DNA of 64,000 bases from the NCBI GenBank assembly GCA_963666315.2, contig CAXXHG010000043.1, forward strand, positions 384,001 to 448,000, in the 5' to 3' direction. Below the pieces are notes generated by a model, which worked only from the letters and a program-made list of their open reading frames with translations, was not told the DNA's origin and made no database searches. Position 1 is the first letter of the stretch, and every line of letters begins with the position of its first letter. This document shows positions 794 to 32,838 of this stretch, one piece after another. The position numbers and the translations under genes are program-made. The stretch is from Candidatus Binatia bacterium (GTDB lineage Bacteria > Desulfobacterota > Binatia > Bin18).

Positions 794-1996
794 ATGCGAC
801 AGGTTGCCGTTGTCGGCGCGGGGATGACCCGCTTTGGAAAACATATGGATCGGAGCATGAAAGACTTGGCCCGAGAGGCAATTGAAAATGCCCTGCAGGC
901 GGCCGGAGTCGAAAAAAACGCCATTGAGGCGGCAGCCGTAGGAAACGCGGTTGCCGGCTTGATCACGGGACAAGAGTGCATCCGTGGTCAGGTCGTACTG
1001 CGCGAACTTGGGATAGGCGGCATTCCTGTGATCAACACCGAGAATGCGTGTGCGAGTTCCTCCACAGCCTTCCATCTCGCCTGGCTCTACGTGGCGTCTG
1101 GCATGTACGACATGGTCCTCGCCCTCGGCATGGAAAAGCTTTTTCATGCCGATAAGAAGCGCACCTTCCAGGCCATAGGTAGCGCAATCGACGTCGAGCA
1201 AGCCGAATCATTTGCCCGGGAGATGAGCGGCGAGCAGAGTGCTGGAGCTGGCAAGTCCCGTAGCGTGTTTATGGATTACTACGCCAACCTCGCTCGTCAG
1301 CATATGGATCGCTACGGTACCACCCAAGAACAATTCGCCCGCATTGCGGCCAAGAACCACACCAACGGCAGCCTCAACCCGCACGCCCAGTATCAAACCC
1401 GCCGCTCCGTAGAAGATGTCTTGTCGGCTCCACTGATCGCCGCGCCCCTGACGCGAATGATGTGTTCTCCGATTGGAGATGGAGCTGCGGCCGTACTCGT
1501 TACGACGGCAGAGAAAGCACGCCAGTTGACGACAAGGCTCGTCTTTGTCAAAGCCTCCAGCTTGGGTTCCAGCAAAGAACACGACCCGGACACCCCTGGC
1601 ATCGTCCCCTCGGTCGCGCACAAAGCGTACGAGCAAGCGGGTGTCGGTCCTCACGACCTGCATGTCGTTGAGGTCCACGACGCCACCGCGCCGGCTGAAC
1701 TACTCATCTACGAAGAGCTGAACCTGTGCCAGCCAGGTGACGGCGGCAAATTAATTGATGACGGAGTAACACAGATCGGCGGCCGTTGTCCTGTCAACCC
1801 GAGCGGCGGTCTGCTGGCCAAAGGACACCCCGTCGGAGCAACTGGAGTTGCCCAGATCTGCGAAATTTACTGGCAGCTTCGGGGTGAAGCCGCACAGCGT
1901 CAGGTTTCCGGAGCAAAAGTTGGACTCACCGAGAACGGGGGCGGTGTCCTAGGAGGGGAAAACGCAGCGGCGTCAATCCATGTTTTTACAGTCTAA
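794..1996 (+). CDS. Thiolase family protein (SCP-x / lipid-transfer type)
   Basis: VVGAGMTRFGK, ENACASSS catalytic Cys, EVHDAT, NPSGGLLAKGHPVGATG; AAGGAG RBS. Confidence 0.93.
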   Translation: MRQVAVVGAGMTRFGKHMDRSMKDLAREAIENALQAAGVEKNAIEAAAVGNAVAGLITGQECIRGQVVLRELGIGGIPVINTENACASSSTAFHLAWLYVASGMYDMVLALGMEKLFHADKKRTFQAIGSAIDVEQAESFAREMSGEQSAGAGKSRSVFMDYYANLARQHMDRYGTTQEQFARIAAKNHTNGSLNPHAQYQTRRSVEDVLSAPLIAAPLTRMMCSPIGDGAAAVLVTTAEKARQLTTRLVFVKASSLGSSKEHDPDTPGIVPSVAHKAYEQAGVGPHDLHVVEVHDATAPAELLIYEELNLCQPGDGGKLIDDGVTQIGGRCPVNPSGGLLAKGHPVGATGVAQICEIYWQLRGEAAQRQVSGAKVGLTENGGGVLGGENAAASIHVFTV

Positions 1997-2148: not shown

Positions 2149-2233
2149 GATAAGTTGGTCTGAATTATTTTGTTTCAACTTATAAGTTCCATTTATTTTT
2201 CCATCGTTGCAGCGAGGAGCGCAGAATCCCTGC

Positions 2234-2261
2234 TTGCTCTCCATCTTCATCCGGCTATGAT
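2234..2261 (+). promoter_or_regulatory. Probable native tRNA-Arg promoter, now upstream of the 5'-half tRNA fragment
   Basis: TTGCTC-16 nt-TATGAT about 20 nt upstream of the tRNA 5' fragment. Confidence 0.55.
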
Positions 2262-2278
2262 GCGAAGACACTGTTCAG

Positions 2279-2321
2279 CGTGCCCTCGTAGCTCAGGAGG
2301 ATAGAGCACCGGATTCCTAAT
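2279..2321 (+). repeat. att direct repeat: 43 bp identical to 13735-13777 (5' half of tRNA-Arg CCT through the anticodon loop)
   Basis: CGTGCCCTCGTAGCTCAGGAGGATAGAGCACCGGATTCCTAAT occurs at both positions. Confidence 0.93.
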
Positions 2322-2339
2322 ACTATAACTGCCCGTTAC

Positions 2340-2427
2340 ATGGAGTGATATCAAGTAGTAAAGTAGCATACAGAGCGTACTCACCGTTGCGTTTCTGCCT
2401 TCCTGCTATCTCCTGATATCACTCCAT
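2340..2427. repeat. 14-bp perfect inverted repeat just inside the left att site
   Basis: ATGGAGTGATATCA (2340-2353) and TGATATCACTCCAT (2414-2427). Confidence 0.85.
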
Positions 2428-2448
2428 ATCTCCCGTTATACCATCTGT

Positions 2449-2468
2449 TTGGGCACCCCCTTGGGCAC
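2449..2468 (+). promoter_or_regulatory. Putative integrase arm-type sites (left end)
   Basis: TTGGGCAC x2 at 12-bp period, matching TTGGACAC/TTGGTCAC at 13663-13682. Confidence 0.65.
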
Positions 2469-2880
2469 AACTGTCTGCGCCAATAACGTGTGATTGAGGC
2501 GTGGCGGTACCTATTGACCTAAGGGGGTCAGGAAGTCCGGTCACGTCAAAAGCGGCATTGGCCTGGATTTGCCCATGGGTATGCCCTAACTGGGAGACGG
2601 TGCCGTCAACACGGCAGACCTGCACGCCACCCTAGGCCAGCTACATTCCTACGCTCAGCTAATTGCAGATCGTTGCGTAGTCAGACTTCATTGCGACGCG
2701 GAAGACCAGCCTCAGCAGAGCTTCTAAAAATCCGACCTGGAATTGGTTTGTGAACCCGACGTAGACAGTGAATCACGCAAGTGCACGCAGGGGGCTTTCC
2801 TCATGAACTGGTTTGTATTGCGAATCGATGCAGGACCTTGGTAAGGAAAACTTATGCAACGTCTCGTGTTCGTGCTGTAG

Positions 2881-3300
2881 GTGCCCCTGTTGGTACTCGT
2901 CGTGGGGTTCGCCCAAACAGGGACCTGGGAGCAGTTAGGCTCGAGCTTCGTTGCGGAAGGCTCCGGGGATTACCTGGGGCATTCTGTCGCAATCTCCTCC
3001 GACGGAAATCGTGTGGTTCTGGGAGGACAATACAACGACGGTGCAGGACACAACGCTGGCCATGTTCGAGTGTTCCAGTATGGCGGAACGAATTGGAGCC
3101 AACTTGGCGAAGATCTTGACGGCGAAGCGACAGAAGACCAATTCGGGTACGCAGTTGATCTGTCGTCAACATGGGGTCTCGATACTGGTCTTGCTGCTGG
3201 CGTTGTTCTCATTGGGTGCCGCGGCCGCGTGGGCTCAGTCGGCAGGCTGGACCCAAGTAGGAGACACTTTTGTCGAAGAAGCATGGACGGGTACCCAGCG
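2881..3300 (+). pseudogene. Fragments of secreted FG-GAP/integrin-alpha beta-propeller repeat proteins
   Basis: WEQLG...DYLGHSVAISSDGNRVVLGG...NAGHVRVFQY...WSQLGEDLDGEATEDQFGYAVDLS, then a second signal-peptide-like start ending WTQVG in another frame. Confidence 0.7.
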
Positions 3301-3479
3301 GTCTCATCCATCGAGACTGTTCTGATATATCGCTTTGATGAGTTATGGCGAAACGATATGGCCGCCTGAAGTCGTCAATCGGCGCGGCCACATTGTCTGC
3401 GTGTTTGTTTGGACGGCGCTTGGCATCGATGATGTTCCTCATACGGCTCAAACGTGGAGCGGTCCTGATCTTCCATGGG

Positions 3480-3761
3480 GCGACGCTGATTTACAATGAT
3501 GATATTGTGGAAACTGATCAGGATGTGCCGGTAACGATCCCAGAGGCAGACTTGCTTGCCAATGGTACGGATGTGCACGGAGATAGCCTGAATATTACTG
3601 CAATCGACAAAGCAGTGAAGGGGAGAATCCGTATCAGCGGAAACGGGATCATAAACTTCATGACTGGTCGGCGTTTCTCCGGTGACGGATCCTTTCAATA
3701 CACGATTGATGCTGGCAACGGTGGAACCGATACGGCCACCGTGACGATGTCGAGTCCTTAA
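3480..3761 (+). pseudogene. Cadherin-like/bacterial Ig-like adhesin repeat fragment
   Basis: DDIVETDQDVPVTIPEADLLANGTDVHGDSLNI...FSGDGSFQYTIDAGNGGTDTATVT. Confidence 0.7.
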
Positions 3762-3779
3762 AAAGAAGGAGGAGGTATT

Positions 3780-5039
3780 ATGCGGCCAACGTCATGGGCG
3801 GGAAAAGTAGCCGGCCTTTTTAGCGCTATTTTCGCTGGGATGTGTCTGGCTGCAGCGTTTAGCTATGCGGGAGATAAAGCAGGTATTTCTCAGCCTTTAG
3901 CTGGCTTTTCCGGTCTGCAGCTCGGCTTGTACGAGGCCGGGCTAGAGGAGTTCGAGCGACACTTTCGCGCTCGGGATGGGCTTGGGCCACAATTTAATGA
4001 AAACCCGTGCCATTCTTGCCAAGATGAAGGAGGTATTTCTCAACCTTTAGCTGGCCTTTCCACTCAGCAGCTCGGCTTGTACGAGGCCGGGCTAGAGGAG
4101 TTTGAGCGACGCTTTCGCCGTCAGGATGGGCTTGGGCCGCAATTTAATGGCAACTCGTGCCATTTCTGCCATCGTCAGCCGTCCGTTGGCGGCTCAGGTC
4201 CTCGCTATCGGAGTAATTTCAACTTTGCGCATGGTAGCGATCTGCTCGAACTCGAAGGAGGACCGCTGCTCCAAGTGAAAGCCATCCGTGGGGAACCAAG
4301 AGAACTTATTCCAGCCGCAGCAACAAATTTCTCGCTGCGCAAAGTTCCTCCGCTCCACGGCCTGGGCTTGGCGGAGGCCATTCCAGACAGTCAAATAGAA
4401 GCCGTCGCCACCCAAAACGGTGGAAAAAGTGTCCTCACTGAAGACGGCCATATGCAGCGTTTTGGTTCACAAAATCAGGTCGTTAGCCTCAAACAGTTTG
4501 TCATGGGTGGATTTGCTCGGGAACTTGGCATTACGGAAGACGAAAATCCTGAGATCTCTCAATCTATAGAGAACGTTCTCAACTTTATCCGCTTTCTGGC
4601 TCCACCTCTACGCGGAGAAATAAACGAAGACGTTCTGCGTGGCGAAGAAGTCTTCACACAGATTGGATGCGCTGACTGCCACACGCCTTCATTTACGACT
4701 GCGCCAGGCCCGTTCACCACGGCTAGCGGTGAGGTCGTCGATGTCACGGCTATGCAAAATAAGACGATCATGCCGTATTCAGACTTCCTCCTCCACGACT
4801 TGGGTCTAGGGCTCGACGACGGCGTCCCGTTGCACGGGGGATCTAGCGCAGAATATCGAACCATACCGTTGTGGGGACTCCGCTTCCGCAAAAACAAGCT
4901 GATGCATGATGCCCGAGCAGCCAATTTCCGTCAGATGCTGCTCTTTCATGGAGGTGAGGCAGCGGTAGCGAGAGATGAAGCGATGAGTCTTCCGCGTGAA
5001 GACAGCCAGGCTTTAGAGAAATTTTTAAAGTCGCTCTGA
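3780..5039 (+). CDS. Secreted di-haem oxidoreductase (DHOR / thiol oxidoreductase-like) with an internal 50-aa duplication
   Basis: Signal peptide, DGLGPQFN..SCHFCH, PPLHGLGLAEAIPD, GCADCH, PYSDFLLHDLG, RTIPLWGL, MHDARA; strong GGAGG RBS. Confidence 0.88.
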   Translation: MRPTSWAGKVAGLFSAIFAGMCLAAAFSYAGDKAGISQPLAGFSGLQLGLYEAGLEEFERHFRARDGLGPQFNENPCHSCQDEGGISQPLAGLSTQQLGLYEAGLEEFERRFRRQDGLGPQFNGNSCHFCHRQPSVGGSGPRYRSNFNFAHGSDLLELEGGPLLQVKAIRGEPRELIPAAATNFSLRKVPPLHGLGLAEAIPDSQIEAVATQNGGKSVLTEDGHMQRFGSQNQVVSLKQFVMGGFARELGITEDENPEISQSIENVLNFIRFLAPPLRGEINEDVLRGEEVFTQIGCADCHTPSFTTAPGPFTTASGEVVDVTAMQNKTIMPYSDFLLHDLGLGLDDGVPLHGGSSAEYRTIPLWGLRFRKNKLMHDARAANFRQMLLFHGGEAAVARDEAMSLPREDSQALEKFLKSL

Positions 5040-5245
5040 ATACTAGCTAGCCCATCGGCAACCTGTATGAGGGTCATATCGACGAACCTTAGACCAAAAT
5101 TCGATATGGTCATTTGACCCTCCCTGGATATTTGCTCATCACGAAGACGTTTTTTCTTAATGATCGGGTGCACATGAGGACTACGAAAGGTTTTTCCTCT
5201 TGCCGATGTGTACCCATTGTCATTCAACCATTCTGCTATCTGTTT
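5036..5245 (-). pseudogene. Serine-recombinase recombinase-domain-like fragment
   Basis: IAEWLNDNGYTSARGKTF..V..I pattern; no start codon context. Confidence 0.45.
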
Positions 5246-5399
5246 AAATGTCCAACCCTTGCCTCGAAAGTCTGATACCGGATCGTAAAGAAATTGTTGG
5301 TAATTGGAGTAGAGCGCGACCCATAGAGTTGATGTGCGCAGATTTACGTCGAAGGTTAAAATTGAGCCGAGTCATAATAGTCGATTCACCGCTGTCCTG

Positions 5400-5480
5400 G
5401 ATCGCTTTCTTCCGCACTGGCAGCAGCGGCGGGACGAGCTGAATCGTTTGCCAGTCCGGCATGAGGAGTGGGGATATTAA
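5400..5480 (+). pseudogene. C-terminal remnant of a YgjP/DUF45-like metallopeptidase (commonly next to type I RM loci)
   Basis: DRFLPHWQQRRDELNRLPVRHEEWGY* read directly from sequence. Confidence 0.5.
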
Positions 5481-5677
5481 GTGCGAGCGGCTGGCCATGG
5501 CGTGACGGATAGCGGGAGCGAGTGGCGTTATTGAAACGCGGGGACGGTTCTGACGAAAAGACAGGGTCTCATAACGTCGTGATAGGCCCACACCATAATT
5601 ATTCGAGCTGGGGCGGTTTTGTTGCCGGCGATGAGAACGATGATTCAGAACCTGCAGGAAATTCTTGAGTAGAAGTC

Positions 5678-6403
5678 TTAGTCCCGCCCTGCCTCAATAA
5701 TCTTCTCAGCTAATCCAATCGGATTGGTAAAAATCGCCTCATGGCTGCCCGGCATTTGGACCAGCCGATACAGACCCAAGCGATTTGACATACGTGGATG
5801 CCAGCCCCACTCGCCCGGTGGCAAAGCGATATCTTCGGTACAGTTCAGAAAACTCTTGGGGATGTCTGATGCGTAGAACTTCTTCATGTCGAGCTTGTCG
5901 CGATAGGGCTGGTACGGCTCAGGCGAGAGACGTTCGTAGGCGGATTTGGCGAGTGCTAAATCCGCATCATTAATAAAAGCGTCGCGCCAAATCGGGAACG
6001 GCAATACGATCGTATAATCGTTCGACTCTTTTACTAGCTCATCAAAAAGCTCGTGATAGTGAGATGGAACTTCATCCATCAGACTATTGCCATCCTCACA
6101 CACAAACGCATTCCAAAAGACGAGACGCTTGATCCGTTCCGGGATGGCAGGCGCTACCTGAGAGATAAGGGTGCCACCAAAGCTGTGGCCGACAAGGACA
6201 ATATCTCTCAAGTCTTCTTTAACAATGAAATCAATAATCGACTGCGTACACTGGGCGTGATTGACATTTTTGTCCACGCCTTTGCCATGCCCGGCGATGG
6301 TCGGACCAAAAGCGGTATGGCCTTTCCCTTCCAAATGCGCGATCACCGGCTCCCAGGCCGACCCATCGTGCCATGCACCGTGGACCAAGACAAATAGAGA
6401 CAT
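5678..6403 (-). CDS. Alpha/beta hydrolase (esterase, salicylate-esterase-like)
   Basis: FVLVHGAWH, GHSFGG nucleophile motif, PGSHEA catalytic His; AGGAGG RBS. Confidence 0.92.
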   Translation of the reverse strand: MSLFVLVHGAWHDGSAWEPVIAHLEGKGHTAFGPTIAGHGKGVDKNVNHAQCTQSIIDFIVKEDLRDIVLVGHSFGGTLISQVAPAIPERIKRLVFWNAFVCEDGNSLMDEVPSHYHELFDELVKESNDYTIVLPFPIWRDAFINDADLALAKSAYERLSPEPYQPYRDKLDMKKFYASDIPKSFLNCTEDIALPPGEWGWHPRMSNRLGLYRLVQMPGSHEAIFTNPIGLAEKIIEAGRD

Positions 6404-6586
6404 AGCTATCCTCCTGGGTGCTTTCGTATGACATGCCGATGGGAACTGTCAATGCATCGCCCCCGGCTTCTCCCACCCCAATCAGGATGAGAACAGTGTA
6501 CTGCAGTTCGGTACGTCAGTATCCGGAGGATCACTCAATGTTGCCTCCGGCATAACTTCTTCGGTTAGCGGCGGCAGTGGGAGAAA

Positions 6587-6836
6587 ATGCAGGAAGAAGC
6601 CTCGGCTGTTGACTTCAGCCCTGGTTCCCTCGACCTGTTGGCTGGCTCGGTCGGCAACGACGATGACCGGGCGATACTCGACGAAGAACAATTGCAGGCT
6701 GAAGAGGACGCGCAGTTCGAGGCTGCTTCTGCTGCCACGATGGGACCGATTGAGGATTTGTCGGCCAAGCAATTGTTTGAGCGCGAGCAGCAACTGCTCC
6801 AGGAAATGACAGATATTGCGGAGCCGCCCGCGAGGC
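6587..6836 (+). pseudogene. Internal fragment resembling the acidic linker of SNF2 helicases (DISARM DrmD-like)
   Basis: DDDRAILDEEQLQAEEDAQFEAASAA...REQQLLQEMTDIAE; recalled similarity only, no helicase motifs present. Confidence 0.35.
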
Positions 6837-7571
6837 CTAATCCAGTCCCTGCAGATTCTCAAGAATATCCGCCGGCTCTAGGCGAATGGCATAATTCGCG
6901 TCCACATGAGCAAGCTTGATAGTCCGATCTGTACCAATGACGTAGGTCCCGGGTATCGGGAGCTGCCAGACGGCGCCGCCATTATGATCGGGTAGCTTAA
7001 TTCCTAATGCCGCGTACGCTGTTTGAAGCTCATCAACGAGCCGAAATGCGAGTCCGAATTGCTTGGCCACAGTGTTGCCCACGTCGCTGAGGACCTCAAA
7101 CTTGAGGCCAGTCCTCTCTGCAATGGTGAGCGAGTTATCTGGTGTTTGCGGAGAAATGGCAACCAACGAGGCACCCTTAGCTAGTATCTCCGGCAGATGT
7201 TTTTGGTAAGCCTGCAACTGCGGGTTACAGTACGGTCACCACGCGCCTCTATAAAAGGCGACCACGACGAGCCCTGTGACCAAGAGGTCGGAAAGCGAAA
7301 CGGACTCTTCGCGGACATTGGGTAAGCTGAAATCGGGCGTCGTGTCTCCCACCTTCAAGGCTGTTTTTGCGATGCCGGACTTTACCTGGTCTTCTGTTGT
7401 TCGCACTACAACACCAAGAACTTCTTTGGGTAACTTGGGCAGCATTTCTTTCTGAAATGCTGCAATTTGTTGTTTGAGCTCGCTATCGGGCCCAGTCCGC
7501 GGGACCTTTTTGGTGCAGAACTCAATCATATCCGTAACAATCCCCGCGCCGGGTTCCATTTGACCGCTCAT
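6837..7571 (-). CDS. Peroxiredoxin-like AhpC/TSA-family selenoprotein (in-frame UGA at 7236-7238, W-U-P-Y-C)
   Basis: ORFs 7236-7571 and 6837-7217 share a frame; read-through gives VVAFYRGAW-U-PYCNPQLQAYQ, where homologues have WCPYC; selA and tRNA-Sec are in this window. Confidence 0.85.
7206..7228 (-). promoter_or_regulatory. Candidate bacterial SECIS hairpin
   Basis: mRNA GUAACCCGC-AGUU-GCAGGCUUAC; apical loop begins 16 nt after UGA with G at loop position 2. Confidence 0.55.
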
Positions 7572-7795
7572 AGAAATACACCTTTCCGAAAAGAATGACT
7601 GCAGCTCCGCGAGCTTTGCCGTTTGCGTAGGCGGGTCAGGTTGCTTGCTCCCCGGGCTCTTTTTTACCGATGGGGCTGTCGGTTTCGGAGGAGTTGTGCG
7701 CGATACGGAAGGGACAAAGGCGGACGATGGGCGCGGTTCAGGAACATCACCACTCTCTCCTGGTAGGTTAGTTGGCTGAGGCGGCGTTTCATCTG

Positions 7796-8596
7796 TTACA
7801 TCAGAGGACTTTCCTTTGATTCGGCTACGGTTGACCGCTTGGAAGGAGGCGGTGGGTCAGGCAGGAGTGGGACTGGCTCCTTTGTCTCCCGCTTCGCTGT
7901 CTCTTTATGCTGGACGGGGAGTTGTCCTTCTCCTTCCTTCGGATTGTCTAATTCAGAAGAAGCGTCTGAGGGCGGATCGGGTGGTATAGCGGACAAATCC
8001 TTCGGAATGCCAACAAAGGAAGAATCCTGCTTTGTAAGTCGTTGCCTCTGCACTCCTCCCTCATGAACTGGTGTCCATCCAACGTAGCCTACTACGGCAA
8101 GGGCGAGGAGTCCGGCAGCGCACATGCGTGCATAACGCCAACGGCTCTGAGGTGCTTCAAAGAGCTGTGTCGGAAGTACGATTTTATTGCTCTGGGGCTT
8201 TTTGGTTACATCCGCTTCGAGAAATTGCTCCGATGGAAGGGATGCTGCTGTTAACTTTGTCTCTTCGTCCTGTACGGTTTCTGGGGTAGGGGGTTCTTGC
8301 GAAGGCTCTCGCGATGCTTCCTGATCTTGCTGCGCTCTTTCAATAGGGTCTGTCGTCCCGACAGTGTCGAGTCCTCCCTCGGTGCTGAAGTCGTCATCAA
8401 GCTCTTCGAGCACATTCTTTGCCCTTCCCATTTCTACAGAGAGATCAAAGAGCTTCTGACGGATTTCGACGTGGTGAGAATCAAGAGCGAGTACTGCCCG
8501 GTACTCAGCCTCAGCCTCTTCCAGTCTACCCTCCTGCCTGAGACGCTCACCGTTCTGAATGTGATTAATTAGGGGATCACTCTCCTGGTTTGTCAT
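7796..8596 (-). CDS. TPR + single transmembrane + Pro-rich protein (probably continues by frameshift into the selenoprotein frame)
   Basis: N-terminal TPR (GRLEEAEAEYRAVLALDSHH), TM helix AAGLLALAVVGYVGW, Pro/Glu-rich tail. Confidence 0.65.
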   Translation of the reverse strand: MTNQESDPLINHIQNGERLRQEGRLEEAEAEYRAVLALDSHHVEIRQKLFDLSVEMGRAKNVLEELDDDFSTEGGLDTVGTTDPIERAQQDQEASREPSQEPPTPETVQDEETKLTAASLPSEQFLEADVTKKPQSNKIVLPTQLFEAPQSRWRYARMCAAGLLALAVVGYVGWTPVHEGGVQRQRLTKQDSSFVGIPKDLSAIPPDPPSDASSELDNPKEGEGQLPVQHKETAKRETKEPVPLLPDPPPPSKRSTVAESKESPLM

Positions 8597-8864
8597 GGTG
8601 TTTTTGCTGAGTATTCCACGAAGTTATCTAAGGAAATGGCTCTTCATTCGCCCCGCGACATAATCCCGTCTCCCCGTATTCCATTTCCTATTTTTGCGTG
8701 TATCGGTATCGCAGAAACTGGGGCCGTGCAAGAGAAACGCCCTGCCAGACTTCCATAATCGATTGTAGGTAAGCCCCAGGCTAGATATCGACCCGGTTCC
8801 GGGTCCATTTCATCTGACCCCAGCACTGTTTTGCACCCTTCACATCACCGACCTGTCGAACAAA

Positions 8865-9270
8865 GTGGCTTTGATGAACGGGACCGAAGTCGATGTGGTG
8901 CCCCTACCCTCCCTATACCGGCGGCTTGGTCCGGACGATGTGCGCCCTTTGTATCCGTTTGCACGTGATTTTGTTCTTCAGCTCCGTCTTGAAAAGGAGC
9001 TGCACGAGGACTGTCGCGTAGAGACCACGTTCCGATGGATACCGTTGACAGGCGGCAGCTTTAATGTCAGTCCGATGACCGCAAGAGCGCGTTACTCGAT
9101 CCTGCGCATACGCGGAACGCTGTTCGATGTTTTTACGATTCTTCTGCTGTTGACTGGAAGCTAGGATTAATCGACAAGGTCTTGTTCTGCCCTAATCGCG
9201 ACACACTATTTGTGAGACGAGGCAAGCAGAAGTACTGTACCCCTCGCTGCACACAGCACGCGGCAGGCCC
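8865..9270 (+). pseudogene. Degraded mobile-element gene ending in a CGNR-like zinc-finger remnant
   Basis: LFCPN...LFVRRGKQKYCTPRC in a broken frame after ORF 8865-9164. Confidence 0.4.
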
Positions 9271-9525
9271 ACGCGATTTCCAGGCCGCAGCCTGGGGGGG
9301 AATGGAGAGGACAACCCGATGTCCCGTAACCCCCAGAGAATCAAGGCTTTTCGCCTATTTTCGGCGGGTTACGAAACTCATAGTGTGGGTATTGGTAAAC
9401 AGCAATTGTTCACCGTCGAACGCGCAGAAGTCAGTGAGCGTTCCACCGTTGTCGATGTTAATGAGTCTTCCCACGGATTGTCTTCCTATTGAGAGACGAA
9501 ATGTACGCCTTGGCTACAAGGCGCG

Positions 9526-10335
9526 TTATGCGCTTTCAATGTCGTCGTAATCTCCATGGCGCCCTTTGCCACTGCTGAACCGCGCGGCGCCAGCGAGGCC
9601 TTCGGTCTCGACGATGTCGATGCTATTTCCCCATTCGGTACGCAGTGCATCGGCGACCGGCAAGCCATGCTGCCGATAGACCGAGCGACGGTCTGCTCGC
9701 ACGCATTCCTGCGGAAAGCGTGCAATCTCGTGGGCGAGTGCCTCGGCCGACTCTCGCGAGCTACCGTCAGCGACCACCTGTTCGCAGGCGCCGATGCGCA
9801 GACACTCGTCAGATGGGACTTTCCGTCCGGTCATGATGATTTCGAGCGCACGTCCCTGGCCGACCAGTCGGGGCAGGCGCACGGTACCGCCGTCGAGCAG
9901 GGGAACCCCCCAGCGTCGACAGTAGACACCAAAATAGGCGCTCTGTTCCATCACGCGGATATCGCACCACAACGCCAGCTCGAAGCCGCCCGCGACGGCC
10001 GGGCCCGCCACCGCAGCAATCACCGGTTTCGACAAGTCAAGCCGTGTCGGTCCTATGGCACCGCGTGGCGGCTTACTTCCATCCGCCGGAAAGTCGAGTT
10101 CACGGAGCGGTTTTGCGCTCCCTTTGAGCGCGCTCGCATACTTCAGATCCCATCCGGCGCAGAACGCACCGCCTTCCCCCCAGAGAACGGCCACGCTGGA
10201 ATCCGGATCAGCATCGAAACGCTCGAATGCCTCCACCAATGCATCCGCACTGTCAGGGTCCATTGCGTTGCGGGCTTCGAAGCGGCTGTGAATTACTGTC
10301 GTCACTGCACCATTTCTTTCAATGCGTACACTCAT
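9526..10335 (-). CDS. Enoyl-CoA hydratase/crotonase family protein
   Basis: FCAGWDLK, KPVIAAVAGPAVAGGFELALWCD, GVPLLDGGTVRLPRLVG; AAGGAG RBS before ATG at 10335. Confidence 0.93.
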   Translation of the reverse strand: MSVRIERNGAVTTVIHSRFEARNAMDPDSADALVEAFERFDADPDSSVAVLWGEGGAFCAGWDLKYASALKGSAKPLRELDFPADGSKPPRGAIGPTRLDLSKPVIAAVAGPAVAGGFELALWCDIRVMEQSAYFGVYCRRWGVPLLDGGTVRLPRLVGQGRALEIIMTGRKVPSDECLRIGACEQVVADGSSRESAEALAHEIARFPQECVRADRRSVYRQHGLPVADALRTEWGNSIDIVETEGLAGAARFSSGKGRHGDYDDIESA

Positions 10336-10466
10336 CTCGATCTCCTTAATCGTTCGGGCTGGCCAGAAGAGGCACGGGGGGTGCTTGTCGAATTGGGTAT
10401 CCAATACTCCAAGGAGGCTTTTGTTCAGGCCATTGGGAACAATGACTCTACCAAGCGTGTCTTATG

Positions 10467-11558
10467 CTACACAAGATATTTCGCTACTGCGTGCTCATCC
10501 CATGCGAGGCCTGTCCCCGGTGTGGAGGTGGGCAGAATCTTGCCAGCTTCAATAACAGTCGGTTCTTGGAGAAAGGGATCCGCCCAGTCCATATACTCCA
10601 GCCAATGCCGCGTTGGCGTTACTGCGAGCAAGTGAGCGCTGATTTCTGGGTAGAGATGTGACGAGATAGGAATGCCGCTGGGCCCAGCCAAGGCAATCGC
10701 TCGCAGCCAGCCTGAGACGCCGCCGATTTTATTTGCATCCGGCATGAGGAAGTCCCCAGCCCCGGCAGCGATTGCCTTGGCCATGTCATGCGGTCCCCAA
10801 AAGTTCTCTCCAAGCTGAATGGGCGTTTGAGTGGATTGGCGAATGAGGGCATAGCCTGCGTAATCGTCCGCGCGGGTGGGCTCTTCGATCCAACACAGCC
10901 CCTCACCGTCAAGTGCTTGGGCCCTTTGCATGGCCTCAGGAACGGACAAAGACTGATTGTAGTCCGACATCAAGGCGATGTTATCGGGAATCGCGTTGCG
11001 GACTGCGCGCACCACCTCAACATCTGTTTTTACATCCGGATAGCCCAGTCTGACTTTGATGGCTTTGAAGCCTGGCTCAACAAGCGCTCTCGCTTCATCG
11101 CCGGCTCGTTCGGCACCGATAATTCCCAAACCCGTACTGTTGTAAGCCGGAATCGGTTGGGCTTTTCCTCCAAGCAGCTGAACCAAAGGAAGTCCAGCTG
11201 CTTTTGCGCATGCATCCCAGGCCGCGCTATCGATACCGGCGGCTGCCATGGCAGTAAAACCCTGTGGGCCGAGCAAACGAAAGGCTCGTTGTAATTTTTC
11301 TTCTAGGGCGAGCGGGGCAACTACTTCACCGTTGATGAGGTCGCCCAGATTGTGCAGCAGCTTGACGAGAGGTTCAAGGACAAACGCGGCATAGCAGAAG
11401 ATATAGCCACAGCCGGTAATGCCTTCCTCCGTCTCAAGATCGACCAGTACAAGCGGGACCCGAGCGACTGATCCACCCCCCGTTTGTATTGGTCTCGTCA
11501 TGGGCAGGCTGAGTGCACGGGCACGTAAAGAACGGACTGTGAGGACATGCCTGGGCAT
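10467..11558 (-). CDS. Mandelate racemase / enolase superfamily enzyme
   Basis: KAIKVRLG, DYNQ, WIEEP, QLGEN, PDANKIGG, SSHL motifs. Confidence 0.9.
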   Translation of the reverse strand: MPRHVLTVRSLRARALSLPMTRPIQTGGGSVARVPLVLVDLETEEGITGCGYIFCYAAFVLEPLVKLLHNLGDLINGEVVAPLALEEKLQRAFRLLGPQGFTAMAAAGIDSAAWDACAKAAGLPLVQLLGGKAQPIPAYNSTGLGIIGAERAGDEARALVEPGFKAIKVRLGYPDVKTDVEVVRAVRNAIPDNIALMSDYNQSLSVPEAMQRAQALDGEGLCWIEEPTRADDYAGYALIRQSTQTPIQLGENFWGPHDMAKAIAAGAGDFLMPDANKIGGVSGWLRAIALAGPSGIPISSHLYPEISAHLLAVTPTRHWLEYMDWADPFLQEPTVIEAGKILPTSTPGTGLAWDEHAVAKYLV

Positions 11559-11810
11559 GGATTCCCCTCTCTCCCAGTGAGCAGGTGAATGCAGAGTATA
11601 GCCAATGCGCTGAGAGGGTCAAGCAGGAAGGCGAGAAGTTGCTTACTATCCAGGAAGTTGTTCCCTCGGTTATTGGGAGGGTAGCAGACAGTCCTCCGGA
11701 CCGTACCAAGGTTACTGCTGTGTCCAGTTTATTTTCTTGCATCATATGACCTCCCCGTTCTGACGTGTCATAGGACACATACTACTCTCAACAGTTATAC
11801 CCTTTACTAG

Positions 11811-11839
11811 TTGACAGTTCAAGAGTGTCACGGTACGCT
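11811..11839 (+). promoter_or_regulatory. Sigma70 promoter for xre-int
   Basis: TTGACA-17 nt-TACGCT; TGAC..GTCA palindromes nearby (TGACGTGTCA 11761-11770). Confidence 0.6.
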
Positions 11840-11862
11840 TCTCATGTGTGGAGGTCATCATA

Positions 11863-12609
11863 GTGAGACGCAGAGTATCACGGCCACTTGGAGGAATACT
11901 TGGCGCTGCGATCCGCGAAGCACGAGAGACAAGACGGTTGCGTCAAGATGACCTTGCAGCGGTTGCACGAGAGGTTGGACTTCCTTGGACACGGGTGACT
12001 GTGGCAGCCATCGAAATTGGTCGCCGCAGGCTCACTCTCGATGAATTTCTGCTACTACCTGCTGTTCTGAATTTCACCGAGCTGGCCGAGCTTTTTCCAA
12101 TGGACTCGTGGGTTGGCCTTACGAAGGAAACAAGCGTACACAGCACAGAGCTGAAATACATTCTCTCGGGGAAAGCCGGGAAAGGTCATCCCGGAAATTA
12201 TGACACGCCAGCGCAGCGTAAGCTCCAAAATGAATTCCCCAGACAACAGATAAGGGACATCGTTCAAGGGACAGTCATCCCAAAGGTTGTGGAAGTGATA
12301 CGACGCGTGTGGCCAGAGGTAGAAAGTGGCGGCAATGAGTTCCTTATTCAATGTGAGATGGAAGCCAAGAGGGATGCCGAGCAGAAGGCCGCACGAAGAT
12401 TGCACGTGTCGCCCTTTGAGGTCGCCCTGGCGGCGCAGAAGTTGTGGGGGCGTTCGTTGACGGCGGAACGAGACCGGCAGGTCGCGTTTCGAGAGACCGA
12501 CGCGGCGGCAACAGGCAGACGCCGTGCCATCAGGGGCCATGTGACGAGGTTACTTGTTGAAGAGATCAGGCCGCTGGTAACAGGTGCATGTGAGGCTGAC
12601 GAGGGGTAA
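11863..12609 (+). CDS. XRE-family HTH regulator of the integrative element
   Basis: IREARETRRLRQDDLA...WTRVTVAAIEIGRRRLTLDE; GGAGGT RBS before GTG 11863. Confidence 0.8.
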   Translation: MRRRVSRPLGGILGAAIREARETRRLRQDDLAAVAREVGLPWTRVTVAAIEIGRRRLTLDEFLLLPAVLNFTELAELFPMDSWVGLTKETSVHSTELKYILSGKAGKGHPGNYDTPAQRKLQNEFPRQQIRDIVQGTVIPKVVEVIRRVWPEVESGGNEFLIQCEMEAKRDAEQKAARRLHVSPFEVALAAQKLWGRSLTAERDRQVAFRETDAAATGRRRAIRGHVTRLLVEEIRPLVTGACEADEG

Positions 12610-12640
12610 ACAGGGAATCACAAGGCGCAGAGGACTAAAT

Positions 12641-13725
12641 ATGCCTAAATACAGATATGGCGCAGTCAGAGTGTATCGGCGTGGCAAGACTTGGTGGATC
12701 GATTATTACCATGATGGCAATCGTGTCCGCGAATCAGCGGACACGTGTGACAAAAGTGAGGCACGGCGTTTGTTGCAAGAGCGGATGGGGCAAATAGCCG
12801 AGGGACGCTATGGGGGTCCACGAGCGGATCGGGTAACTCTGGTGGACTTGGCAAGAGGTCTTCTCGACGATTACAAGACGAATGGAAGAAAGACTCTGAG
12901 TGACGTGAAAATCCGTATCAATCTGAATTTGTTTCCATTTTTTGGAAAGCGACGGCGAGCCCAATCACTTACATCCACCGATGTGCGTTCCTACATTTCA
13001 GAAAGACAGGTAACCGGGAGTTAGCCGCCCTGAAACGAATGTATAATCTCGCCCTTCAAGAGGCGATAATTAACAGGAAACCCTATATCCCTAGTCTTGA
13101 CGAAAACACGGCGAGAAAAGGCTTTTTCGAGAGGCATGAATTTCTGTCGATGTTGTCGAAGCTGCCCGAGTATCTACGACCATCCTTCATGTTCGCGTAT
13201 CAGTTCGGCTGGAGGATAAGAAGTGAGGTATTCCCACTACGCTGGGAGCAAATTGATCTGCATACCTGCACGGTCCGTTTGGAGGTAGGGATCACGAAAA
13301 GCAAAGATGGAAGACTTATATACCTGACAAACGAACTTCGTGCCGTGTTTAGTGCCTATTGGGAACAACATCTCAGGTCTTCCCCGGGGTGCCCCTGGGT
13401 TTTTCACCGTAGTGGTAAACGTATATTCACGTGCTACAAGGCATGGCACAGGGCTTGTCGGGAAGCCGGGCTGATTGATAGGATACCACACGATTTTAGG
13501 CGGACCGCTGTGAGGAATATGGTAAGGAGCGGAATCCCTGAGAGAGTGGCTATTCAAGTGGCCGGACACAAAACGCGGTCTGTGTCTGATCGGTATCATA
13601 TCGTATCGGATATCGACCTCCAGGAAGCAGCAACACGAATGGAATCGTGTAATTCACCAGTCTTGGACACAAATTTGGTCACAGGAACCCCGTTCGCGTT
13701 AGGGGAAACCAACGTAAGTCACTAA
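12641..13725 (+). pseudogene. Tyrosine integrase, split by a small deletion/frameshift near 13010
   Basis: N-terminal arm-binding region WWIDYYHDG; NRELAALKRM resumes in another frame; catalytic R (GWR), K, HDFRR, GHK and Y present. Confidence 0.88.
13663..13682 (+). promoter_or_regulatory. Putative integrase arm-type sites (right end)
   Basis: TTGGACAC and TTGGTCAC at 12-bp period. Confidence 0.65.
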
Positions 13726-13737
13726 TTTCATTAACGT

Positions 13738-13811
13738 GCCCTCGTAGCTCAGGAGGATAGAGCACCGGATTCCTAATCCGGGGGTCGTGCGTTCGAATCG
13801 CGCCGGGGGCA
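13738..13811 (+). tRNA. tRNA-Arg (anticodon CCT), CCA not encoded
   Basis: Cloverleaf: GCCCTCG/CGGGGGC acceptor, GCTC/GAGC D-stem, CCGGA-TTCCTAA-TCCGG anticodon arm, GTTCGAAT T-loop. Confidence 0.96.
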
Positions 13812-13924
13812 TGTCCTTTCTTTTCAATATCTTATGCAATTTCATAGGTTTTCCAGCTATCTAGAGCAACCCAGTTTGTTGTCCAGTTTGTCTCACCAGT
13901 CCGGTTTATCCAGCTATAACTATG

Positions 13925-13950
13925 AAAAAGGGGCCTGGAAATCCAGGCCC
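13925..13950 (-). terminator. Intrinsic terminator downstream of glmS
   Basis: GGGCCTGG-AAAT-CCAGGCCC with a T-run on the minus strand. Confidence 0.75.
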
Positions 13951-13998: not shown

Positions 13999-15828
13999 CT
14001 ATTCTACCGTTACACTTTTTGCCAGATTACGCGGCTGATCAACGTCGGTCCCACGGTAAATGGCAACATGATAGGCTAAGAGCTGGAGCGGGATGCTGAG
14101 CAGAATCGGCATGAGCAGGTGGTTGGTCTTCGGGACTTGGATGATCTCCCAGGCAATCTCTTCAAGCTCAGGAGAAGGAGCGTCGGTCAGTGCAATAACA
14201 CGTCCCCCCCGTGCCTCGACCTCTTTCATATTGCTCAGTGTTTTTTCGTACACGGGATCTTTTGGTATAAGTACGACAACGGGCATTTGCTCATCTATGA
14301 GCGCGATCGGACCGTGCTTCATCTCGCCGGCGGGGTAGCCCTCGGCGTGGATGTAGGAAATTTCCTTGAGTTTGAGTGCTCCCTCGAGCGCAATGGGATA
14401 ATTCACCCCCCGTCCGAGATACAAGAAATCGCTGGCATGGCCATATTTTTTGGCAATTTTTCCAATGGCTTTGGCCTTGGTCAGGGCCTCTTGGACAAGC
14501 GATGGTAGATTGACGATATCTTCGATGAGTTTGCGGCTTTGGTCTTTATTCAAGACACCCCGACGTTGGCCAAGATGTACGGCTAAGAGATAGAGCGCTG
14601 TCAGCTGGGTCGTAAACGCCTTGGTTGAGGCAACGCTGATCTCCGGTCCCGCGTGTGTATACATGACCATGTCAGCCTTGCGCGTAATGGACGAATCGAC
14701 CACGTTGCAGACGGTGAGGGTAGTGGCCCCTTTGGCTATGCCGGTTTCGAGTGCAGCCAGGGTATCCGCAGTCTCACCCGACTGGGACACGGCAAGCAGC
14801 AAGGTGTCTCTGTCGAGCGGGGTATGGCGATAGCGAAACTCGCTACCATAGTCCACTTCTGTCGGTAGGGCTGCCAGCTCTTCAAATAGGAATTTTCCGA
14901 CCAAACACGAATGCCAGGCTGTTCCACATGCGACTAGGGTCGCCCGTTTTACCGCATCGAGTAAGGGCAGATGCTGGTCGAGTTCGCCCAGAGTGATTTC
15001 GCCCGACTCCTCCAAGATACGGCCCCGCATGGTGTCGATAATAGCTTGCGGTTGTTCGTAGATTTCCTTGAGCAGAAAATGCTTATAGCCGCTTTTTTGA
15101 GCGGTAATGGGATCCCAGGTGATTTGCCGCGGGGCGCGCTCGATCGGCTGCCCAGAGAAATCTGAGATCGACACGTTTGTGCAACTTACCTCAGCCATCT
15201 CACCGTCGTCGAGAAATACGACCTGGCGCGTATAGTCGAGAAGCGCGGGTACATCGGAAGCAATAAAATTCTCACCTTTGCCTAAACCGATGACAATGGG
15301 TGTGGCATTTTTTGCTGTGAGAATGGTGCCAGGATTTTTCTCACTCAGGACGACGATGGCAAACGAGCCAGACAGATGTCGGAGAGCCGTCCGGGTGGCT
15401 TCTGAGAATGACATGCCTTCTTGGAGGTATTGATCAATCAGGTGCGAGATAACTTCGGTATCGGTCTCTGAGCTAAACGTCCGCCCTTTTTCCATCAAGG
15501 CATGCCGCAGGTCGAGATAGTTCTCGATAATGCCGTTATGGATCACGACAACGTCTCCGGCCCGATGCGGGTGGGCGTTCTCCTCAGACGGAGGGCCATG
15601 GGTTGCCCAGCGAGTATGGCCTATCCCAATGCAGCCAGGCAGAGGTTCTTCCTGCAACAGCTGATTGAGGTTGTTCAGCTTGCCCACCGCCCGGCGGATA
15701 GAAATGTGTCCATTTGTGAAAGCGGCGATGCCGGCGGAGTCATAGCCTCGATACTCGAGCCGCTTCAGCCCCTGAAAGAGTAGTGGGGCTGCTTCACGCT
15801 GACCAACATAACCCATGATGCCGCACAT
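13999..15828 (-). CDS. glmS: Glutamine-fructose-6-phosphate aminotransferase
   Basis: MCGI N-terminus, GHTRWATHG, SQSGETADT, PRNLAKSVTVE C-terminus. Confidence 0.98.
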   Translation of the reverse strand: MCGIMGYVGQREAAPLLFQGLKRLEYRGYDSAGIAAFTNGHISIRRAVGKLNNLNQLLQEEPLPGCIGIGHTRWATHGPPSEENAHPHRAGDVVVIHNGIIENYLDLRHALMEKGRTFSSETDTEVISHLIDQYLQEGMSFSEATRTALRHLSGSFAIVVLSEKNPGTILTAKNATPIVIGLGKGENFIASDVPALLDYTRQVVFLDDGEMAEVSCTNVSISDFSGQPIERAPRQITWDPITAQKSGYKHFLLKEIYEQPQAIIDTMRGRILEESGEITLGELDQHLPLLDAVKRATLVACGTAWHSCLVGKFLFEELAALPTEVDYGSEFRYRHTPLDRDTLLLAVSQSGETADTLAALETGIAKGATTLTVCNVVDSSITRKADMVMYTHAGPEISVASTKAFTTQLTALYLLAVHLGQRRGVLNKDQSRKLIEDIVNLPSLVQEALTKAKAIGKIAKKYGHASDFLYLGRGVNYPIALEGALKLKEISYIHAEGYPAGEMKHGPIALIDEQMPVVVLIPKDPVYEKTLSNMKEVEARGGRVIALTDAPSPELEEIAWEIIQVPKTNHLLMPILLSIPLQLLAYHVAIYRGTDVDQPRNLAKSVTVE

Positions 15829-19981: not shown

Positions 19982-20077
19982 TGGCGGAGAAGAGATGGAG
20001 TCGAACCATCCGCGCAACGTTACGCCACGCAACTCGGTTTTGAAGACCGGTACAGCCACCGGGCCATATCCTTCTCC
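19982..20077 (-). tRNA. selC: tRNA-Sec (anticodon TCA)
   Basis: 8-bp acceptor GGAGAAGG/TCTTCTCC, 6-bp D-stem, CTTCAAA loop, long variable arm, 5-bp T-stem, GCCA end; next to selA. Confidence 0.95.
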
Positions 20078-31686: not shown

Positions 31687-32838
31687 ATGAAAACTGTGCC
31701 TGCTGACGGGCCGCTTGTCGAGAAAGACTTTTATCTCAAGGAATTCGGGGACAAAAGTCTGCTTTTTGTGCTGCGCGTGGCTGATCTGGTCTCTCTCGAG
31801 GATCGCCGCAGCGTTGGAGATGTCCTCAGTACACTGGTTCGCAATGAAACGCGAACACTCCTTTTACTTGAAACGGATGGAACAGCGGAGCAGCAGCGAT
31901 GTATTGAAACCTTGTACCAGCAGTGCGCTCAAACGCTGAAGTCTACGCTTCCGACTCCCACCGTCTTGTCGCCTGAAGCTGACGACGATCAGCTGCTTAT
32001 CCAGGCTTGGGAGGTCCTCCGAACAGGACCGATCTTTATCGGTCTGTGGCCAGAGCAGGCGAACGTCTCGTTTCTGTTAGGTGCGCAACGGCTGGCGATC
32101 CGCCTGAAGGTATATAAACTTGTTCTCCTCGATCGGCAGGGTGGCTTGACCTCTGCTGGCGGCCCGACGTCTTTCCTAAACGGCCCGACTTTGAAGGTTC
32201 TGCAATCCAAAATTGAGAACATTGATGGATCCGTGGAACGTCGCTTTCAGCTCGAAACTGCATGGCGGGCGCTTGAAGGAGGAGTCTCCTCTGTTTCGCT
32301 CTGTGCTCCGTCTCACTTAGCGCGAGAGCTTTTCACCTACGAAGGCTGTGGCACCCTATTGACCTTGGCAGATTATTGCCGGGTGGAACGACTCGCCCTT
32401 GATGATTTCTACGAGGTCGAAAGACTCATGCAGCGTGGCGAGCGAGAGGGGTATCTGAAGAGCCGAACCCCGTACGAAGTGAGTCTCCTGCTTTTGCATG
32501 GTTACGGCGCCAGGCTGGGTAAGGAGAGAGATTTAGTCGGTTTTTGTGCCCTGCTGCCCTACCGAGCTGAAAATGCAGGAGAAATTGCAGGTTTATATAC
32601 ATTGACTCGGTTTCATGGAGAAGGGATCGGAAGTCGCCTTGTCATGACCGCGATTACCGAAGGATGGGAGCGTCATTTTGCCTATCTCTTTGCGTGTACG
32701 AATCAGGCGGGGGCGCAACGGCTATTTGAACGGTTCGACTTTGACCAAGTCGGTCCAGACGAAATTCCTGCAGAAAAATGGGAAGGATATGCTGAAGGGC
32801 GCCGGCGGAATGTTACAGTGTATAAACGTGAACTGTAG
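31687..32838 (+). CDS. ArgA-like amino-acid N-acetyltransferase (degenerate kinase-like domain + GNAT)
   Basis: ELFTYEGCGTL linker, AGEIAGLY...HGEGIGSRL, FACT. Confidence 0.72.
   Translation: MKTVPADGPLVEKDFYLKEFGDKSLLFVLRVADLVSLEDRRSVGDVLSTLVRNETRTLLLLETDGTAEQQRCIETLYQQCAQTLKSTLPTPTVLSPEADDDQLLIQAWEVLRTGPIFIGLWPEQANVSFLLGAQRLAIRLKVYKLVLLDRQGGLTSAGGPTSFLNGPTLKVLQSKIENIDGSVERRFQLETAWRALEGGVSSVSLCAPSHLARELFTYEGCGTLLTLADYCRVERLALDDFYEVERLMQRGEREGYLKSRTPYEVSLLLLHGYGARLGKERDLVGFCALLPYRAENAGEIAGLYTLTRFHGEGIGSRLVMTAITEGWERHFAYLFACTNQAGAQRLFERFDFDQVGPDEIPAEKWEGYAEGRRRNVTVYKREL

Follow-up and report, generated by a model that had tools for sequence, protein, structure and literature searches.

Organization of the island and its target tRNA

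The subject of this analysis is an 11.4-kb genomic island adjoining the gene for tRNA-Arg(CCT) in Candidatus Binatia bacterium (GCA_963666315.2, here genome G000), whose assembly comprises 47 contigs, is 92% complete and yielded 50 tRNA genes. The window, that is, the whole stretch of DNA that was analyzed, is 64,000 nt long and corresponds to G000:C43:384001-448000 (contig CAXXHG010000043.1); coordinates given without a contig refer to the window. On its left side, the locus starts with a thiolase gene as native flank (794-1996, plus strand; Pfam Thiolase_N and Thiolase_C_1) and a short region that we denote U (2203-2278, plus strand). It ends on the right with an intact tRNA-Arg(CCT) gene (13737-13812, plus strand; ARAGORN; Rfam tRNA, 63 bits), the sole CCT tRNA among the 50 tRNA genes of the genome. 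Between the two, a repeat search returned a single exact direct repeat of 43 nt, 2279-2321 = 13735-13777, which spans from 2 nt upstream of the tRNA through the first base past its 7-nt anticodon loop. We designate the left copy attL (2279-2321, plus strand; tRNA nt 1-41 = 2281-2321), as it represents the displaced native 5' fragment of the tRNA, and the right copy attR (13735-13777, plus strand), the element-borne copy of the tRNA 5' part. The repeat bounds the island body (2322-13734, without strand assignment), which carries the integrase at its right end.

Read from right to left, the island consists of attR, the integrase gene, an overlapping gene for an Xre-type helix-turn-helix (HTH) protein (11848-12609, plus strand; Pfam HTH_3, E 9.2e-06; NCBIfam HipB-type HTH match below cutoff) and a divergent intergenic region. 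Further left follow five opposite-strand cargo genes, then plus-strand gene fragments and finally the left arm. The integrase stop codon (13725) and the start of the tRNA lie on the same strand with 11 nt between them. As in other tRNA islands, a tyrosine recombinase gene is located at one end, a direct repeat of part of the tRNA at both ends, and an uninterrupted site in a relative (G024, see below); the polarity is reversed in that the displaced fragment is a 5' fragment, lies upstream in direct orientation, and the integrase adjoins the restored 5' end.

The sequence-only reading had assumed an intact integrase, a point that we have to correct: the gene is split over two reading frames of the plus strand. 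Its N-terminal part (12584-13024; Arm-DNA-bind_2, E 0.0014, below cutoff) aligns with intact paralogues from MPKYRYG and stops after ...ERQVTGS; its catalytic part occupies another frame (13039-13725; Pfam Phage_integrase, E 1.1e-16), with homology resuming at about 13009. In an alignment to three intact paralogues, homology runs to ...ERQ in the one frame and resumes at GNRELAAL in the other, with approximately 8 codons missing in addition to the change of frame. Contigs from three public runs of three studies (X1, X2, X5) contain no indel in this stretch, and because the same sequence occurs in all three, the lesion is no consensus error of the assembly. Judged by its reading frames, a frameshifting deletion has left the integrase as a pseudogene, and the island appears to be fixed.

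Empty and occupied sites in related genomes

The uninterrupted counterpart of the locus is found on contig C23 of the related genome G024: thiolase, a homologue of 2203-2278, an intact tRNA and 22 nt matching 13813-13834 follow one another without an island, that is, the equivalent of window positions 2203-2321 runs directly into that of 13735-13834, with flanks about 92% identical. Region U is thus the native upstream region of the tRNA; its identity to the counterparts in G024 and G009 amounts to 85-88%, and in G024 the intact tRNA follows it immediately. The thiolase, too, is a stable companion: in the 17 genomes of the genus that have both genes on one contig, it lies upstream of tRNA-Arg(CCT) on the same strand at a distance of 0.3 to 23 kb.

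Two further relatives, G020 and G009, are occupied. Both contain U, then the 5' fragment (90% and 100% identical, respectively) and then sequence resembling the left end of the island, with 83% identity to 2322-2602 in G020 and 78% identity to 2322-2470 in G009; the integrase-tRNA junction of G020 is 80% identical. The displaced fragment of G020 has accumulated 4 mismatches in 42 nt; the full tRNA, by contrast, is the same in G000, G009, G020 and G024, as would be expected if selection acts on the full gene alone.

These comparisons bear out the structural part of the sequence-only reading. The 43-bp identity over the tRNA 5' half to just past the anticodon loop was confirmed as an exact repeat, and the intact tRNA does lie just downstream of the integrase stop on the same strand. 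The claim that the native upstream region stays with the broken left fragment agrees with the position of U in front of the intact tRNA of G024, which also supplies the junction predicted for relatives with an empty site.

Reversed polarity across the integrase family

The same arrangement recurs within G000. At tRNA-Leu(TAA) on C24, an integrase stop codon is followed after about 11 nt by the tRNA 5' end on the same strand. At tRNA-Leu(CAA) on C37, this layout is accompanied by a second intact integrase 8 kb upstream that adjoins a 5' fragment only, which constitutes a tandem array, and a fragment of the integrase-tRNA layout is present on C5. The sole tRNA-Arg(ACG) gene (C22:78598-78673) is directly preceded by an integrase-tail remnant; a 30-nt 5' fragment lies 10.6 kb upstream (89246-89275) and a 45-nt 3' fragment 46 kb downstream (32198-32242). 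We also observed a locus in G024 (L050; G024:C21:1-2487) at which tRNA-Leu(TAA) has family integrase remnants on both sides, one per polarity.

Homologues from other phyla share the layout and the 11-12 nt spacer of the paralogues where the tRNA follows the integrase. Among 21 such loci, the tRNA follows the integrase on the same strand in 5, is convergent with it, the usual polarity, in 11 and precedes it in 1, with no tRNA nearby in the remaining 4. A displaced fragment was found within the fetched 10 kb in 4 of 17 loci and was always the half predicted by the polarity: the fragments of L063, L066, L073 and L076 end at tRNA positions 31-40, and in L063 an upstream 5' fragment coexists with a downstream 3' fragment. 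A further 29 loci of the same class comprise 5 reversed and 13 standard ones and 11 without a tRNA within 400 nt.

In a tree of 55 rows, from which L081 (long branch) and L082 (too short) were left out, the window integrase falls inside a clade of 13 rows (Shimodaira–Hasegawa-like approximate likelihood ratio test 91), of which 11 are reversed, 1 is standard (L085, tRNA-Cys) and 1 is unplaced. A smaller, careful tree recovers the same clade with support of 89/97. The row nearest to the window integrase, L062 (63% identity over 226 columns), stems from a Binatia metagenome-assembled genome (MAG) and also abuts tRNA-Arg(CCT); overall, the clade draws on several phyla, and its members occupy the genes of at least six tRNA species. 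With 14 reversed and 25 standard rows, the tree requires at least 5 changes of polarity, 3 of which are forced by well-supported branches, while shuffling of the polarity labels gives a mean of 11.7 changes and in 0 of 500 cases as few as 5. Going by these sequences, reversed polarity is typical of the clade of the window integrase and no one-off. The clade pattern together with the multiple changes indicates that reversed polarity is heritable in the family but emerged on more than one occasion.

The 3' half of the tRNA and a proposed nearby inversion

The other half of the tRNA is bounded by a repeat of its own. A second att-type repeat of 59 bp extends from the anticodon loop to 13 nt past the tRNA (13767-13825, plus strand) and has a 100% identical, inverted copy outside the window at C43:328454-328512. 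With the 5' repeat ending at 13777 and the 3' repeat starting at 13767, the two overlap by 11 nt, and this overlap holds the anticodon loop (13770-13776). The sequence beside the distant copy corresponds to the flank that follows the tRNA in G009, G020, G021 and G022: in G009 and G020, the order is intact tRNA, an element of 1.3 to 2.9 kb, a direct 3' fragment and then the native downstream flank, which likewise lies downstream of the tRNA in G021 and G022. In the window, the tRNA is followed by a remnant resembling the tail of an integrase from a standard-polarity element (13813-13925, minus strand), which has the layout of the family tails, points at the tRNA 3' end and contains a tandem CCAGTTTGT (13871-13879 and 13883-13891); G024 has a comparable integrase-tail remnant after its tRNA. 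By these sequences, the tRNA seems to owe its 3' half, too, to an element, namely a second one of standard polarity. On this reading, the native halves of the tRNA would survive as fragments 58 kb apart, and the working gene would combine the 5' half of one element with the 3' half of another.

The gene next to the remnant, glmS (13999-15828, minus strand; Pfam; terminator at 13931-13950), is a non-native neighbour of the tRNA: in G021 and G024, glmS borders the homologue of C43:328.85 kb. Both new junctions, that at the tRNA and that at glmS, would be produced by one inversion that broke the second element on one side and the sequence downstream of glmS on the other. As an explanation of all synteny differences relative to G021 and G024, a single inversion was discarded: the tRNA and glmS junctions fit, whereas the join at C43:339.4-370.6 kb does not. 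This segment (C43:339400-370600) consists of 31 kb of ordinary chromosomal genes and joins two blocks that G021 has at distant positions and G024 on separate contigs, each with other neighbours there; it is either a further rearrangement or an assembly join. We also dropped the label of an IS630-type transposase for C43:328608-328841, a 78-codon open frame beside the inverted tRNA fragment for which Pfam gave nothing at E up to 0.01 and which has no other copy in the genome.

Tandem words and the proposed attachment site

Tandem sites with a 12-bp period near both island ends, as claimed by the sequence-only reading, stood up as pairs and not as words. The single word TTGGNCAC is not enriched in the window (9 found versus 8.33 expected). 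Of the tandem pair with its 12-bp period, exactly two perfect copies exist, at 2449-2468 and 13663-13682; allowing up to 2 mismatches yields 3 matches versus 0.36 expected, a number reached in 0 of 100 shuffles. The left pair, TTGGGCAC-N4-TTGGGCAC (2449-2468, plus strand), and the right pair, TTGGACAC-N4-TTGGTCAC (13663-13682, plus strand), located 74-55 nt upstream of the tRNA in the terminal codons of the integrase, are putative arm-type integrase sites. Among the relatives, G009 keeps the left pair with one mismatch, G020 lacks exactly one 12-bp unit of it, and the right pair is identical in G020 despite differing neighbour bases. The left arm additionally contains a 14-nt inverted repeat (2340-2353 and 2414-2427, no strand; 100% complementary) whose two arms have been kept in G020 and G009 despite divergence of the 60-nt spacer; the one change present in G009 occurs on both arms.

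Each family copy in G000 possesses its own tandem-word pair at the same distance from the tRNA and inside the last codons of the integrase. Across 19 reversed junctions, which are related sequences and no independent trials, a 9-mer repeated at a minimum of 8/9 with 11-13 bp period was found in 11, compared with 57 of 2000 random windows. Moreover, 8 of the 19 have a perfect match to WATCAANNNNTTR, which we take to be the consensus for integration host factor (IHF), between the arm words and the tRNA and overlapping the stop codon, compared with 1 of 2000 random windows.

The class of tRNA integration sites named by Williams (2002) after the anticodon loop reportedly has its crossover within the 7-nt loop, flanked by the symmetric stem. 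For the present element, the attachment site attP would be composed of two arm-type sites in the last codons of the integrase, a short spacer and the tRNA 5' half with the anticodon stem-loop as core; its left arm would contribute the conserved inverted repeat and the second pair of arm sites.

Proposed history of the locus

Taken as a whole, the repeats, the empty and the homologous occupied sites, the damaged integrase, the distribution of polarity in its clade and the altered synteny are best explained by the reversed-polarity integration of an element that is now immobile, together with a second element and an inversion, an explanation that we regard as probably correct. The order of events that we infer is as follows: A tyrosine-integrase element, with the tRNA 5' part located in its attachment site directly behind the integrase stop codon, would have entered the single tRNA-Arg(CCT) gene at the anticodon loop. 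Integration would thereby have displaced the native 5' part (2279-2321), along with the upstream region and the likely promoter, by 11.4 kb to the left and formed a complete gene from the element-borne 5' half (13737-13777) and the resident 3' half. A second element of standard polarity may likewise have replaced the 3' half, of which element short remnants alone remain. A later inversion, with breaks inside the second element and downstream of glmS, would have moved the native 3' fragment and its flank by 69 kb and inverted them.

Several observations weigh against this history or parts of it. The contigs (k-mer contigs) of 4 public runs end inside the 43-bp repeat and bridge neither junction, and no excised or empty-site form, i.e., no joint skipping 2322-13777, occurs in them, a weak test, as contigs break at the repeat; public sequencing holders listed for the sequence number 20, from 10 studies, and none of these is registered as RNA. 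A single ancient insertion is not established: the left end of G009 is less similar than that of G020 (78% versus 83%), yet its flanks are more similar (95% versus 91%). Conservation is lower at the element ends than in the coding flanks, and the left end of G009 is the more divergent one, so that one old insertion and several are not distinguishable. The plus strand between 11400 and 13740 holds no sigma-70-like promoter at the scan threshold, and a terminator-like hairpin lies inside the integrase at 13383-13399. The arm-DNA-binding domain of the integrase has the weak, below-cutoff match given above, and the IHF-type motif is degenerate here, the tandem being present and a perfect match to WATCAANNNNTTR, and with it the expected bending site, absent. 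The GC content of the island is no different from that of its flanks, the cargo, with homologues scattered across genomes of the genus, does not look foreign, and the join at C43:339.4-370.6 kb is left unexplained by one inversion when compared with G021 and G024.

Transcription of the restored tRNA

When an element integrates on the 5' side, the tRNA gene is severed from its own promoter, and either its expression has to be provided by the element or the host has to cope without it. A candidate for the native promoter was recognized by eye in U (TTGCTC 2234-2239, 16-nt spacer, TATGAT 2256-2261). With 8/12 it is below the scan threshold; its TATGAT starts 25 nt upstream of the fragment. Conserved in both G024 and G009, the candidate resembles better-scoring sites before other tRNAs of G000, the second hexamers of which often start 14-26 nt upstream. 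The scan itself found left of the fragment only a 9/12 site at 2142-2171, about 110 nt before it. Readthrough from U to the intact tRNA is implausible because five opposite-strand genes lie between them.

On the side of the element, a candidate xre promoter was likewise seen by eye (TTGACA, 17-nt spacer, TACGCT; 11811-11839, plus strand), which scores 9/12 with 3/6 in the second hexamer and is not listed by the scan; it immediately precedes the start of xre and has palindromes in its vicinity. Within 120 nt upstream of the intact tRNA, no sigma-70-like match exceeds 6/12, a value among the lowest 16 of 50 tRNAs, in a genome in which the sigma-70 consensus discriminates weakly: a score of 8 or more is reached by 20 of 50 tRNA upstream regions versus 344 of 2000 background regions. 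In G020 and on C37, an integrase remnant of approximately 300-540 nt stands alone before the tRNA, with opposite-strand open reading frames (ORFs) beyond, an arrangement that favours a start inside the 3' part of the integrase. We consider it quite conceivable, though short of probable, that the tRNA is transcribed by readthrough from the start of the xre-int unit, with processing at the tRNA ends; a promoter inside the 3' part of the integrase is a candidate to which we attach a more tentative belief. Two other features were discarded on inspection. An 8/12 site about 258 nt before the tRNA, shared by 6 of 12 family junctions in a lenient scan, overlaps conserved codons (A-C...G-K-I-P). The hairpin at 13383-13399, considered as a conserved feature, owes its T run to conserved codons, and in G020 and L062 the left arm is different.

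Alternatively, the restored tRNA might be expressed barely or not at all and this might be tolerated by the host, in which case the element need not supply a promoter. AGG is the rarest arginine codon (3.7% of Arg codons and 2.4 per 1000 codons in 967 long ORFs), a gene for tRNA-Arg(TCT) is present on C10, and tRNA-Arg(UCU) reads AGG by wobble. Because of the rarity of AGG and the existence of tRNA-Arg(TCT), low expression of tRNA-Arg(CCT) might suffice, with which the 6/12 match upstream is compatible. A silent gene is at odds, however, with the full tRNA that is unchanged in four genomes, as opposed to 4 changes in 42 nt of the G020 fragment, and with the occurrence of the same polarity at tRNA-Leu(CAA), tRNA-Leu(TAA) and tRNA-Arg(ACG), which are single-copy here and hard to lose. 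We therefore judge silence of the tRNA to be unlikely.

Probable immobility of the element and integrity of the assembly

With an integrase that has lost about 8 codons and its frame, and with several cargo genes reduced to fragments, the element is now considered immobile. Its island could in principle still be mobilized in trans: intact paralogous integrases with 52-64% identity are encoded on C24, C14 and C37, and the tandem pairs at both island ends are intact. The tandem words at the arm positions of these paralogues differ, though, which argues for separate specificities, and the joint skipping 2322-13777 is not listed in the four runs, weak as this test is. Mobility in trans is thus very unlikely.

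The remaining alternative, an ordinary 3'-type island that was rearranged or misassembled at tRNA-derived repeats, could draw on the inversion near the locus (at least one relative to the relatives) and the inverted tRNA fragment 69 kb away, on an assembly of 47 contigs and on public contigs that end within the repeats, but it is highly improbable, as the two tRNA 5' copies are direct and not inverted, the junction of U, 5' fragment and left end recurs in G009 and G020 and that of integrase and tRNA in G020 and the distant MAG L062, paralogues and homologues from other phyla share layout and spacer, and the breakpoints lie beyond the repeats, inside the second element, where no sequence is present that could confuse an assembler.

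Cargo and neighbouring features

The opposite-strand cargo block (5678-11558, minus strand) was annotated with Pfam and encodes, from left to right, an alpha/beta hydrolase (5678-6403), an AhpC/TSA protein whose gene is split (6837-7217 and 7236-7571), a TPR protein (7796-8596), an enoyl-CoA hydratase (9526-10404) and an MR/MLE enzyme (10467-11558). To the left of this block, a di-haem oxidoreductase-like gene (3780-5039, plus strand; Pfam DHOR, profile positions 325-499 of 499) matches its family in the C-terminal third only and holds a tandem duplication of 150 bp (3872-4171, 88% identical; repeat family D1). This partial gene, the split AhpC/TSA gene and fragments of FG-GAP and cadherin-like genes are signs of decay. 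The MR/MLE region (10443-11616) has a 97% identical second copy in the same genome at G000:C1:36793-37966.

Three stretches of approximately 100-140 bp (3286-3388, 5361-5483 and 2557-2697) have copies with 88-95% identity on C46, C37, C32, C38 and C21 as well as in G009, G020 and G024, and may be small repeat elements. A tRNA-SeC gene (19982-20077, minus strand) lies 6 kb to the right of the locus.

Relation to known systems and implications

An element of reversed polarity in a tRNA gene is reportedly the topic of a 2002 article by Zhao and Williams (J Bacteriol 184:859), going by its title. The feature described here is real and its structural reading correct, and its polarity is rare but already known. 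With the standard tRNA and tmRNA islands that are collected by Islander and TIGER, it shares the tyrosine integrase, the att identity block that restores the gene, the displaced fragment at the far end and the occurrence of tandem arrays. Standard islands, however, carry the 3' part and leave the native promoter in place, whereas here the promoter is separated from the gene. A lambda-type heterobivalent attP resembles the proposed site in having tandem short words on both sides of the core, within about 100-150 bp; it differs in that one pair of arm words is located here inside the coding tail of the integrase, the IHF-type motif is degenerate and the arm sites are putative. Doubled motifs occur in reconstructed attP sites of phage-inducible chromosomal island (PICI) integrases as well, as stated in section 19 of PMC10111431, and the configuration filter of Islander, according to PMC4383910, accepts a 5' fragment upstream in addition to a 3' fragment downstream.

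That 5'-restoring elements are rare, as the sequence-only reading had it, is confirmed by section 7 of PMC6563490, which describes use of the 5'-distal part of a tRNA gene for recombination as considerably less frequent than use of the 3' part and cites one bacterial report (Zhao and Williams 2002) and several archaeal ones. The reversed-polarity elements resemble ours in recombining with the 5'-distal part of the tRNA and in the displaced 5' fragment upstream. In contrast to them, the polarity is common here to most of an integrase clade that spans several phyla and tRNA species, and a remnant of standard polarity flanks this tRNA in addition. A search of the main texts of open-access papers returned no account of a bacterial integrase clade whose 5' polarity is consistent. 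Going beyond the sequence-only reading, we found that the polarity is typical of the clade and that the tRNA 3' half is bounded by a second att-type repeat with its partner outside the window. Of the interpretation offered there, the 5' duplication and the separation from the promoter hold, while transcription of the tRNA from the xre-int promoter and a tRNA supply tied to the regulation of the element remain conjecture; the integrase is a pseudogene and the island looks fixed. What the present analysis adds is the pattern at the level of the clade, the apparent double replacement of a tRNA gene and a well-posed question about its promoter, which is directly testable because an occupied site, an empty site and paralogous cases exist in one genus.

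The clustering of polarity on the integrase tree, together with its having flipped several times, suggests that target polarity is an evolvable property of the layout of attP and not of the enzyme. This result is relevant to software that maps islands and to the choice of integrases as tools, and the locus itself exemplifies a tRNA gene of which both halves are apparently derived from mobile elements. A more far-reaching idea, which we consider somewhat unlikely, is that the core, a near-symmetric anticodon stem-loop, allows an element to switch between carrying the 5' and the 3' half, and that, among members of the reversed clade, the final few hundred bases of the integrase gene double as a transcription unit for the tRNA. 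If true, this would explain why integrase tails persist before tRNAs after decay of the element, as in G020, on C37, on C22 and in the window, and the host would depend on a dead element for its tRNA.

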